Shown here in pieces: positions 48,001-51,000 of a stretch of DNA of 64,000 nucleotides. Made by a program: the position numbers. The stretch's first letter is position 1, and each line of letters starts with the position of its first letter. Source of the stretch: Escherichia coli (GTDB lineage: Bacteria > Pseudomonadota > Gammaproteobacteria > Enterobacterales > Enterobacteriaceae); the NCBI RefSeq assembly GCF_029227855.1, contig NZ_CP074356.1; one strand, 5' to 3'.

Positions 48001-51000
48001 AAAACCAACATTGCGACCGACGGTAGCAATAGGCATCCGGGTGGTGCTCAAAAGCAGCTTCGCCTGACTAATGCGTTGGTCCTCGCGCCAGCTTAAGACG
48101 CTAATTCCTAACTGCTGGCGGAACAGATGCGACAGACGCGACGGCGACAGGCAAACATGCTGTGCGACGCTGGCGATATCAAAATTGCTGTCTGCCAGGT
48201 GATCGCTGATGTACTGACAAGCCTCGCGTACCCGATTATCCATCGGTGGATGGAGCGACTCGTTAATCGCTTCCATGCGCCGCAGTAACAATTGCTCAAG
48301 CAGATTTATCGCCAGCAGCTCCGAATAGCGCCCTTCCCCTTGCCCGGCGTTAATGATTTGCCCAAACAGGTCGCTGAAATGCGGCTGGTGCGCTTCATCC
48401 GGGCGAAAGAAACCCGTATTGGCAAATATTGACGGCCAGTTAAGCCATTCATGCCAGTAGGCGCGCGGACGAAAGTAAACCCACTGGTGATACCATTCGC
48501 GAGCCTCCGGATGACGACCGTAGTGATGAATCTCTCCTGGCGGGAACAGCAAAATATCACCCGGTCGGCAGACAAATTCTCGTCCCTGATTTTTCACCAC
48601 CCCCTGGCCGCGTATGGTGAGATTGAGAATATAACCCTTCATTCCCAGTGGTCGGTCGATAAAAAAATCGAGATAACCGTTGGCCTCAATCGGCGTTAAA
48701 CCCGCCACCAGATGGGCGTTAAACGAGTATCCCGGCAGCAGGGGATCATTTTGCGCTTCAGCCATACTTTTCATACTCCCGCCATTCAGAGAAGAAACCA
48801 ATTGTCCATATTGCATCAGACATTGCCGTCACTGCGTCTTTTACTGGCTCTTCTCGCTAATCCAACCGGTAACCCCGCTTATTAAAAGCATTCTGTAACA
48901 AAGCGGGACCAAAGCCATGACAAAAACGCGTAACAAAAGTGTCTATAATCACGGCAGAAAAGTCCACATTGATTATTTGCACGGCGTCACACTTTGCTAT
49001 GCCATAGCATTTTTATCCATAAGATTAGCGGATCCTACCTGACGCTTTTTTTCGCAACTCTCTACTGTTTCTCCATACCCGTTTTTTTGGATGGAGTGAA
49101 ACGATGGCGATTGCAATTGGCCTCGATTTTGGCAGTGATTCTGTGCGAGCTTTGGCGGTGGACTGCGCCACCGGTGAAGAGATCGCCACCAGCGTAGAGT
49201 GGTATCCCCGTTGGCAGAAAGGGCAATTTTGTGATGCCCCAAATAACCAGTTCCGTCATCATCCGCGTGACTACATTGAGTCAATGGAAGCGGCGCTGAA
49301 AACCGTGCTTGCAGAGCTTAGCGCCGAGCAGCGCGCAGCTGTGGTCGGGATTGGCGTTGACACAACCGGCTCGACGCCCGCACCGATTGACGCGGACGGT
49401 AACGTCCTGGCGCTGCGCCCGGAGTTTGCCGAAAACCCGAACGCGATGTTCGTATTGTGGAAAGACCACACCGCGGTTGAAGAAGCGGAAGAGATTACCC
49501 GCTTATGTCACACGCCGGGCAACGTTGACTACTCCCGCTATATTGGCGGTATTTATTCCAGCGAATGGTTCTGGGCAAAAATACTGCATGTAACTCGCCA
49601 GGACAGCGCCGTGGCGCAATCTGCCGCATCGTGGATTGAGCTGTGCGACTGGGTGCCAGCTCTGCTTTCCGGTACCACGCGCCCGCAGGATATTCGTCGC
49701 GGACGTTGCAGCGCCGGGCATAAGTCGCTATGGCACGAAAGCTGGGGCGGCCTGCCGCCAGCCAGTTTCTTTGATGAGCTGGACCCGATCCTCAATCGCC
49801 ATTTGCCTTCCCCGCTGTTCACTGATACCTGGACTGCCGATATTCCGGTGGGCACCTTATGCCCGGAATGGGCGCAGCGTCTCGGCCTGCCTGAAAGCGT
49901 GGTGATTTCCGGCGGCGCGTTTGACTGCCATATGGGCGCAGTTGGTGCAGGCGCACAGCCTAACGCTCTGGTAAAAGTTATCGGTACTTCCACCTGCGAC
50001 ATTCTGATTGCCGACAAACAGAGCGTTGGCGAGCGGGCAGTGAAAGGTATTTGCGGTCAGGTTGATGGCAGCGTGGTGCCTGGATTTATCGGTCTGGAAG
50101 CAGGCCAATCGGCGTTTGGTGATATCTACGCCTGGTTTGGTCGCGTACTCGGCTGGCCGCTGGAACAGCTTGCCGCCCAGCATCCGGAACTGAAAGAGCA
50201 AATCAACGCCAGCCAGAAACAACTGCTTCCGGCGCTGACCGAAGCATGGGCTCAAAATCCGTCTCTGGATCACCTGCCGGTGGTGCTCGACTGGTTTAAC
50301 GGCCGCCGCACGCCAAACGCTAACCAACGCCTGAAAGGGGTGATTACCGATCTGAACCTCGCTACCGACGCTCCGCTGCTGTTCGGCGGTTTGATTGCTG
50401 CCACCGCCTTTGGCGCACGCGCAATCATGGAGTGCTTTACCGATCAGGGGATCGCCGTCAATAACGTGATGGCGCTGGGCGGCATCGCGCGGAAAAACCA
50501 GGTCATTATGCAGGCCTGCTGCGACGTGCTGAATCGCCCGCTGCAAATTGTTGCCTCTGACCAATGCTGTGCGCTCGGTGCGGCGATTTTTGCTGCCGTC
50601 GCCGCGAAAGTGCACGCAGACATCCCCTCAGCCCAGCAAAAAATGGCCAGTGCGGTAGAGAAAACCCTGCAACCGCGCAGCGAACAGGCACAACGCTTTG
50701 AACAGCTTTATCGCCGCTATCAGCAATGGGCGATGAGCGCCGAACAACACTATCTTCCAACTTCCGCCCCGGCATAGGCTGCCCAGGCCGTTCCGACTCT
50801 ATAAGGACACGACAATGACGATTTTTGATAATTATGAAGTGTGGTTTGTAATTGGCAGCCAGCATCTGTATGGCCCGGAAACCCTGCGTCAGGTCACCCA
50901 ACATGCCGAGCACGTCGTTAATGCGCTGAATACGGAAGCGAAACTGCCCTGCAAACTGGTGCTGAAACCGCTGGGCACCACGCCGGATGAAATCACCGCT

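Follow-up and report, generated by a model that had tools for sequence, protein, structure and literature searches.

An Early Amber Codon in Escherichia coli araB: Probably a Lineage-Private, Nearly Neutral Trimming of the Ribulokinase Tail

Introduction

Is a ribulokinase gene that ends nine codons early a damaged gene, a misread one or only an ordinary variant? The question is raised by the ara locus of an Escherichia coli genome, analysed here in a stretch of 64,000 nucleotides (the window, that is, the whole 64-kb stretch of DNA examined). In the window yabI-araC is followed on the plus strand by the divergent genes araB-araA-araD-polB, an arrangement colinear with the annotated loci of JNEC-KY178, strain 104, strain 144, and K-12. 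The locus has the organization of an araBAD operon, in which araC is divergent and is followed by araB, araA, and araD, with araA and araD intact. The features on which the argument depends are the following.

49104-50777, plus strand: araB, ribulokinase shortened to 557 aa with a TAG end (ORF list, translation, TIGR01234, and Pfam)
50775, plus strand: substitution, T in the window and C in relatives, by which CAG (Gln558) becomes the amber codon TAG (alignment, list of substitutions, polarization, and 30-mers)
50778-50804, plus strand: the former last eight sense codons, AAQAVPTL, and the ancestral TAA stop (translation)
50803-50817, plus strand: ribosome-binding site and start codon of araA (AAGGA at 50803-50807, ATG at 50815-50817)
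50815-52317, plus strand: araA, L-arabinose isomerase of 500 aa, intact, its DNA identical to that of JNEC-KY178
52486-53181, plus strand: araD, L-ribulose-5-phosphate 4-epimerase, intact, its DNA identical to that of JNEC-KY178 (coordinates mapped from the JNEC-KY178 alignments with an offset of +34146)

The Amber Codon and Its Cause

The direct reading of the sequence, the ORF list, and the translation all place the araB stop at the TAG of 50775-50777. The translated product has 557 aa and ends in ...HYLPTSAPA, while the frame past the amber continues through AAQAVPTL to the TAA at 50802-50804, as the first-pass annotation had described with correct coordinates and counts. The codons 3' of the amber should now be untranslated unless the amber is read through. 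The araB of K-12 MG1655 (b0063, 68348..70048; protein NP_414605.1) is 1701 nt long and encodes 566 aa, the length that the first-pass annotation had given for it, and the difference between 566 and 557 gives nine codons lost from AraB. The two are the same gene in the same position (yabI-araC/araB-araA-araD-polB) and their products are 99% identical over 557 residues and belong to the same TIGR01234 equivalog; K-12 AraB, however, ends at 566, codon 558 being CAG, whereas that of the window ends at 557 with TAG. They also differ at residue 564, which is Ala in K-12, whereas the untranslated remnant in the window would encode Pro.

The change responsible is a single base. In a 131-nt alignment of the window with E. 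coli strain 104 the sole difference is T50775; in the same alignment K-12 has C at this position, besides two differences that have no bearing on the amber (GCG in place of CCG at codon 564 and a single spacer base). Against alleles of the WP_000951847.1 type, whose 566-aa product is encoded by JNEC-KY178, strain 144, and many other E. coli, araB shows one mismatch in 1701 nt, at 50775, and T at this position is the sole cause of the early stop. The expectation that the TAG would be CAG in a protein of K-12 length was borne out: CAG is present in K-12 and in all relatives examined, none of which ends at codon 558.

Direction and Rarity of the Change

C occupies the position of 50775 in JNEC-KY178, strain 144, O158:H23, strain 104, and K-12. 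It is also C, with CAG as the codon, in two GTDB Escherichia representatives whose sequence matches the flanks, namely E. coli SCPM-O-B-8794 and Escherichia sp. MOD1-EC7003. When polarized with strain 144, O158:H23, K-12, and strain 104, T50775 is, on this sequence comparison, a derived C-to-T transition. A 5-methylcytosine hotspot was considered as its origin and rejected: the cytosine that changed does not occupy the inner position of a CCWGG motif, and the nearest Dcm site lies 8 nt downstream.

The frequency of the allele was evaluated among 5,426 complete E. coli genomes. The full araB of the window has no perfect match in this RefSeq set, where many matches are at 1700/1701 nt, and queries of 361, 59, and 50 nt likewise gave no perfect match; the identity bands used with them are, however, blind to a genome carrying T together with a second nearby difference, and BLAST stretched some short-query alignments across a near-terminal mismatch. 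A 30-mer test was adopted instead because the bands could miss such a genome; in this test seeds of 28-nt words form only in T carriers, and the C version serves as control. By megablast the T-centred 30-mer matched none of the 5,426 genomes, and the C version was matched at 100% in 5,249 of them. In JGI metagenome contigs a T-carrying 29-mer had no exact match. The k-mer CCCCGGCATAGGCTGCCC can be used for screening of the T allele. As regards the distribution of the gene itself, about 67 of the 5,426 genomes lack any match to the 3' end of araB, and of the approximately 5,350 matches to araB obtained from complete E. coli assemblies, three sit on records labelled as plasmids.

At the protein level, the exact 557-aa sequence is present as WEP39983.1/WP_275877421.1, "ribulokinase [Escherichia coli]", on one NCBI contig of 4,870,650 bp, where WEP39983.1 is annotated as ribulokinase and not as a pseudogene. 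The Logan run ERR3675778 was rejected as a second record of the 557-aa product, since its contig extends only one base past codon 557, and this base is C, as in the wild type; in the sequence database its partial product equals the amber product because the contig stops just past codon 557. The feature concerned is:

Logan ERR3675778_21146, 2117-3788: partial araB, wild-type, a contig-end artefact

Taken on these sequence searches, the T allele looks private to the lineage.

Genomic Background and the Base Call

The closest complete genome is that of JNEC-KY178 (NZ_AP045174.1), a clinical isolate from Japan; the next-best complete genomes are about 98.6% identical, and the lineage has only this one close relative among complete genomes. 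The whole window is colinear with JNEC-KY178, from which it is distinguished by seven substitutions and one indel of a 15-bp repeat unit, with no single-base indels across the 64 kb. The differences were polarized by using strain 144 and O158:H23: of the seven substitutions, those at 37866 and 37978, both in leuC, arose in KY178, and the other five are derived in the lineage of the window, namely:

39229, C>T: base -1 of the leuD ATG
40230, G>T: P70H in the IS200 TnpA
40382, A>G: silent, in the IS200 tnpA
44247, G>A: A182T in ThiB
50775, C>T: Gln558 of AraB to amber

The seven substitutions, with no 1-bp indels, point to a clean assembly and to ordinary within-lineage divergence, and by this alignment the araB amber is one among a handful of ordinary lineage-specific point changes.

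The T base call rests on a single assembly, and a sequencing or consensus error has to be weighed, in which the isolate truly carries CAG and T was miscalled at 50775. Such an error would fit an allele that has one genuine record only and is absent from all 5249 genomes with the site, the other 557-aa record being wild-type DNA cut at a contig end; it would also fit the proximity of the Dcm site CCAGG at 50783-50787, as methylated motifs are known to cause miscalled bases in the consensus of some long-read assemblies. The changed base, however, is outside this motif, the comparison with JNEC-KY178 gives no other sign of poor assembly, and two of its seven substitutions arose in KY178 rather than in the window; moreover, a private substitution is expected at such divergence, and C-to-T is the commonest spontaneous transition. 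A miscall is accordingly regarded as unlikely, and a real substitution is the preferred reading.

Other Features of the Window

Some of the remaining differences deserve a brief description. The change at 39229 directly precedes the leuD ATG (AAGGAGCACAC[T]ATG) at the leuC-leuD junction and could slightly shift the initiation of leuD translation. At 44247, within thiB (43704-44687), the mutated base is directly 5' of a CCTGG Dcm site. The changes at 40230 and 40382, two of the five substitutions private to the window, fall in one IS200C copy; they do not derive from the other IS200C copy of the window, which keeps P70, and might have been introduced by conversion with a further IS200 copy located outside the window.

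The two IS200C copies are inverted with respect to each other (39871-40592 and 53232-53952), each contains a match to the Rfam family STnc490, and their transposase genes are:

39980-40438, minus strand: tnpA of the first IS200C copy
53385-53843, plus strand: tnpA of the second IS200C copy

The pair brackets about 12.6 kb that include sgrS/sgrT, sgrR, espY2, thiBPQ, yabI, araC, and araBAD, and through such inverted copies the entire ara-thi segment could be flipped. Both copies are present in JNEC-KY178, only the first in O158:H23, and neither at these sites in strain 144. The small RNA SgrS (40581-40807, minus strand; Rfam RF00534, 228 bits, full length) has its 3' end adjoining the end of the first IS200C copy (40592), with an overlap of about 12 nt by the BLAST boundaries.

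The repeat-unit indel is located in espY1 (60467-61228, minus strand), which contains a 15-bp tandem repeat, GGTAGCACCGTCCAC, in 4.5 copies at 60596-60662. It encodes DGAT[L/V] pentapeptides in the type III secretion system effector EspY1, and the window has one unit more than JNEC-KY178, in frame.

The Residues Lost from AraB

The effect of the amber on the protein depends on what residues 558-566 contribute. Both domains of the FGGY carbohydrate kinases are upstream of the amber and are complete by residue 501: FGGY_N (PF00370) covers residues 4-190 with 39.3 bits (cutoff 28.8) and FGGY_C (PF02782) residues 291-501 with 143.3 bits (cutoff 27). The truncated protein is recognized as an L-ribulokinase equivalog by both TIGR01234 and NF003154. 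In particular, TIGR01234 scores the truncated protein at 934.1 bits and the full-length one at 934.0 (cutoff 583.25), positions 1-535 of the 536 in the profile being matched inside AraB residues 2-552, and NF003154 gives 857.2 versus 859.8 bits, a decrease of 2.6 (cutoff 428). The ribulokinase of Bacillus halodurans, whose structure is solved (PDB 3QDK), is homologous over AraB residues 4-539 (E = 3e-89), and this part, with both FGGY domains, is fully kept in the truncated AraB; in contrast, the enterobacterial C-terminal extension past residues ~540-553, part of which is removed by the amber, has no counterpart in the 3QDK alignment.

A search of 1.84 billion representative proteins gave, among the best 150 analysed, 84 full-length relatives, in which homology ends at a median residue of 541 and at most at 553; by a crude count, 41 of the 84 do not extend past the position equivalent to residue 557. 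In Enterobacteriaceae the sequence is invariant through ...HYLPT-x-APA and diverges completely beyond it; the tails are QAAQAV[P/A]TL in E. coli, with the P/A polymorphism of residue 564 within the species, and PTTPANQAILTH in Salmonella/Citrobacter, which is three residues longer. An AlphaFold2 model built with 41 diverse sequences (mean pLDDT 94, pTM 0.93) has its last helix at 526-549 and pLDDT values below 50 for residues 554-566, a segment that is predicted from the model to be disordered. The amber therefore sits just past the last conserved residues, in a probably disordered and evolutionarily unstable tail. The proposal made at first reading, that the truncation falls outside the kinase core, agrees with Pfam, TIGR01234, 3QDK, the diverse relatives, and the AlphaFold2 model alike. 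Residues 558-566 alone are lost and the conserved and structured parts of AraB are retained, so that araB does not qualify as a pseudogene.

In a preprint, MG1655 AraB proteins carrying a C-terminal His tag or fusion partner are described as active. By analogy, this tolerance fits an exposed and non-critical C-terminus, bearing in mind that tolerance of extension is not tolerance of truncation. A literature search on AraB shortened at its C-terminus, or on the coupling of araB with araA, returned nothing else of direct relevance. On the sequence comparisons, activity and stability are probably retained in AraB(1-557).

Full-length AraB could in principle still be produced if the amber were suppressed, by a suppressor tRNA (e.g., of the glnV/supE type, which inserts Gln), or read through owing to its context. 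In established genetics a mutation of CAG to TAG is the textbook case in which a suppressor that inserts Gln restores the exact wild-type protein, and the downstream frame is open to the original TAA; on the other hand, nothing hints at a suppressor in a lineage of clinical type, background UAG read-through is low in wild-type E. coli, and the tail appears unnecessary anyway. A suppressor tRNA nearby was sought and dismissed, there being no tRNA gene within the 64-kb window. Suppression or read-through is thus considered exceedingly improbable, and a product that stops at residue 557 remains the preferred reading.

Expression Signals at the araB-araA Junction

The early stop may also act on the genes downstream. 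With the amber, the gap from the stop codon to the araA ATG is 37 nt versus 10 nt ancestrally, and the Shine-Dalgarno AAGGA of araA, which overlaps the ancestral araB TAA, is intact. A ribosome-free stretch of 37 nt should be far too short for Rho-dependent polarity. The araB amber mutants of the Englesberg era in E. coli B/r and K-12 were reportedly selected as Ara-negative and were often polar on araA and araD. Those classical ambers and that of the window are alike nonsense codons upstream of araA and araD in one transcript; unlike them, however, the amber of the window precedes the natural end by nine codons and the araA start by 37 nt, and a stop at this site is not expected to abolish function or to exert polarity.

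Altered mRNA structure was examined and discarded as an effect of the substitution: the 131-nt folds around the junction are alike for the two alleles (-29.6 vs -29.5 kcal/mol) and no more stable than shuffled sequence (z ~0), and the only structure at the araA Shine-Dalgarno is a weak, allele-specific hairpin. This local hairpin, of -3.2 kcal/mol, joins CGUUCC at 50789-94 (codons 563-564) with the GGA of the Shine-Dalgarno at 50805-07, through pairing of UCC at 50792-94; it is specific to the CCG allele, K-12 having GCG at codon 564. According to the fold model, it would no longer be opened by translating ribosomes, and a small drop in araA translation is possible, though unlikely to matter. 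A new internal promoter was also rejected: a TAnnnT hexamer (TAGGCT) does arise through the substitution, 38 nt upstream of the araA ATG, but the consensus scan finds no site there, and the promoter and terminator scans of the window agree site for site with those of the wild-type relative.

These observations bear on the reading that the mutation is damaging, with AraB destabilized or inactive, or araA lowered by translational uncoupling, in an arabinose-negative or slow strain at an early stage of pathway decay. A nonsense mutation in a catabolic gene, the presence of the wild-type 30-mer in all 5249 genomes with the site, which indicates a full-length frame conserved within the species, and the weak hairpin left untranslated over the araA Shine-Dalgarno are what such damage would predict. 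The segment removed, however, shows no conservation, varies in length, and is disordered by prediction; its loss leaves the equivalog score as it was, and some half of the full-length relatives naturally stop at the matching position or earlier. Furthermore, the hairpin amounts to just -3.2 kcal/mol and is specific to this allele, and araA, araD, and araC are intact, the DNA of araC being identical to that of JNEC-KY178 as well. Functional damage is consequently judged quite improbable.

A subtler departure from neutrality can be envisaged, in which the stop, now 27 nt earlier, keeps ribosomes off codons 563-564 and lowers AraA relative to AraB through the hairpin, or the new ...APA end shortens the half-life of AraB, with a shift in arabinose flux or induction. 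The C-terminus of AraB(1-557), ...TSAPA, is uncharged, as is the native ...AVPTL, and nonpolar C-termini are said to be able to speed proteolysis in E. coli, a result attributed to Parsell, Silber and Sauer in 1990. This effect is held to be highly improbable; if true, it would be a natural case of operon stoichiometry tuned by the shift of a stop codon.

Conclusions

The reading that is quite probably correct is a recent, lineage-private C-to-T nonsense substitution in araB, neutral or nearly so. The transition at 50775 would turn the CAG of Gln558 into an amber codon at which translation stops nine codons early, and the resulting 557-aa AraB would keep the whole FGGY kinase fold and shed part of a variable, probably disordered tail. 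The effect on downstream araA should be negligible, as araA has its own AAGGA Shine-Dalgarno, and AraB, and hence arabinose catabolism via AraB, AraA, and AraD, most likely still works.

The genes of the araBAD operon, araB included, are among the best understood in bacteria, and what is described here is a trivial allele of a known gene. For database work, exact-sequence protein look-ups may return partial genes at contig ends that mimic truncated alleles. The allele, if real, is a possible lineage marker, and the strain is not to be scored as araB-deficient or arabinose-negative on the sequence alone: the trimming of nine unconserved residues from AraB is ordinary strain-level variation.
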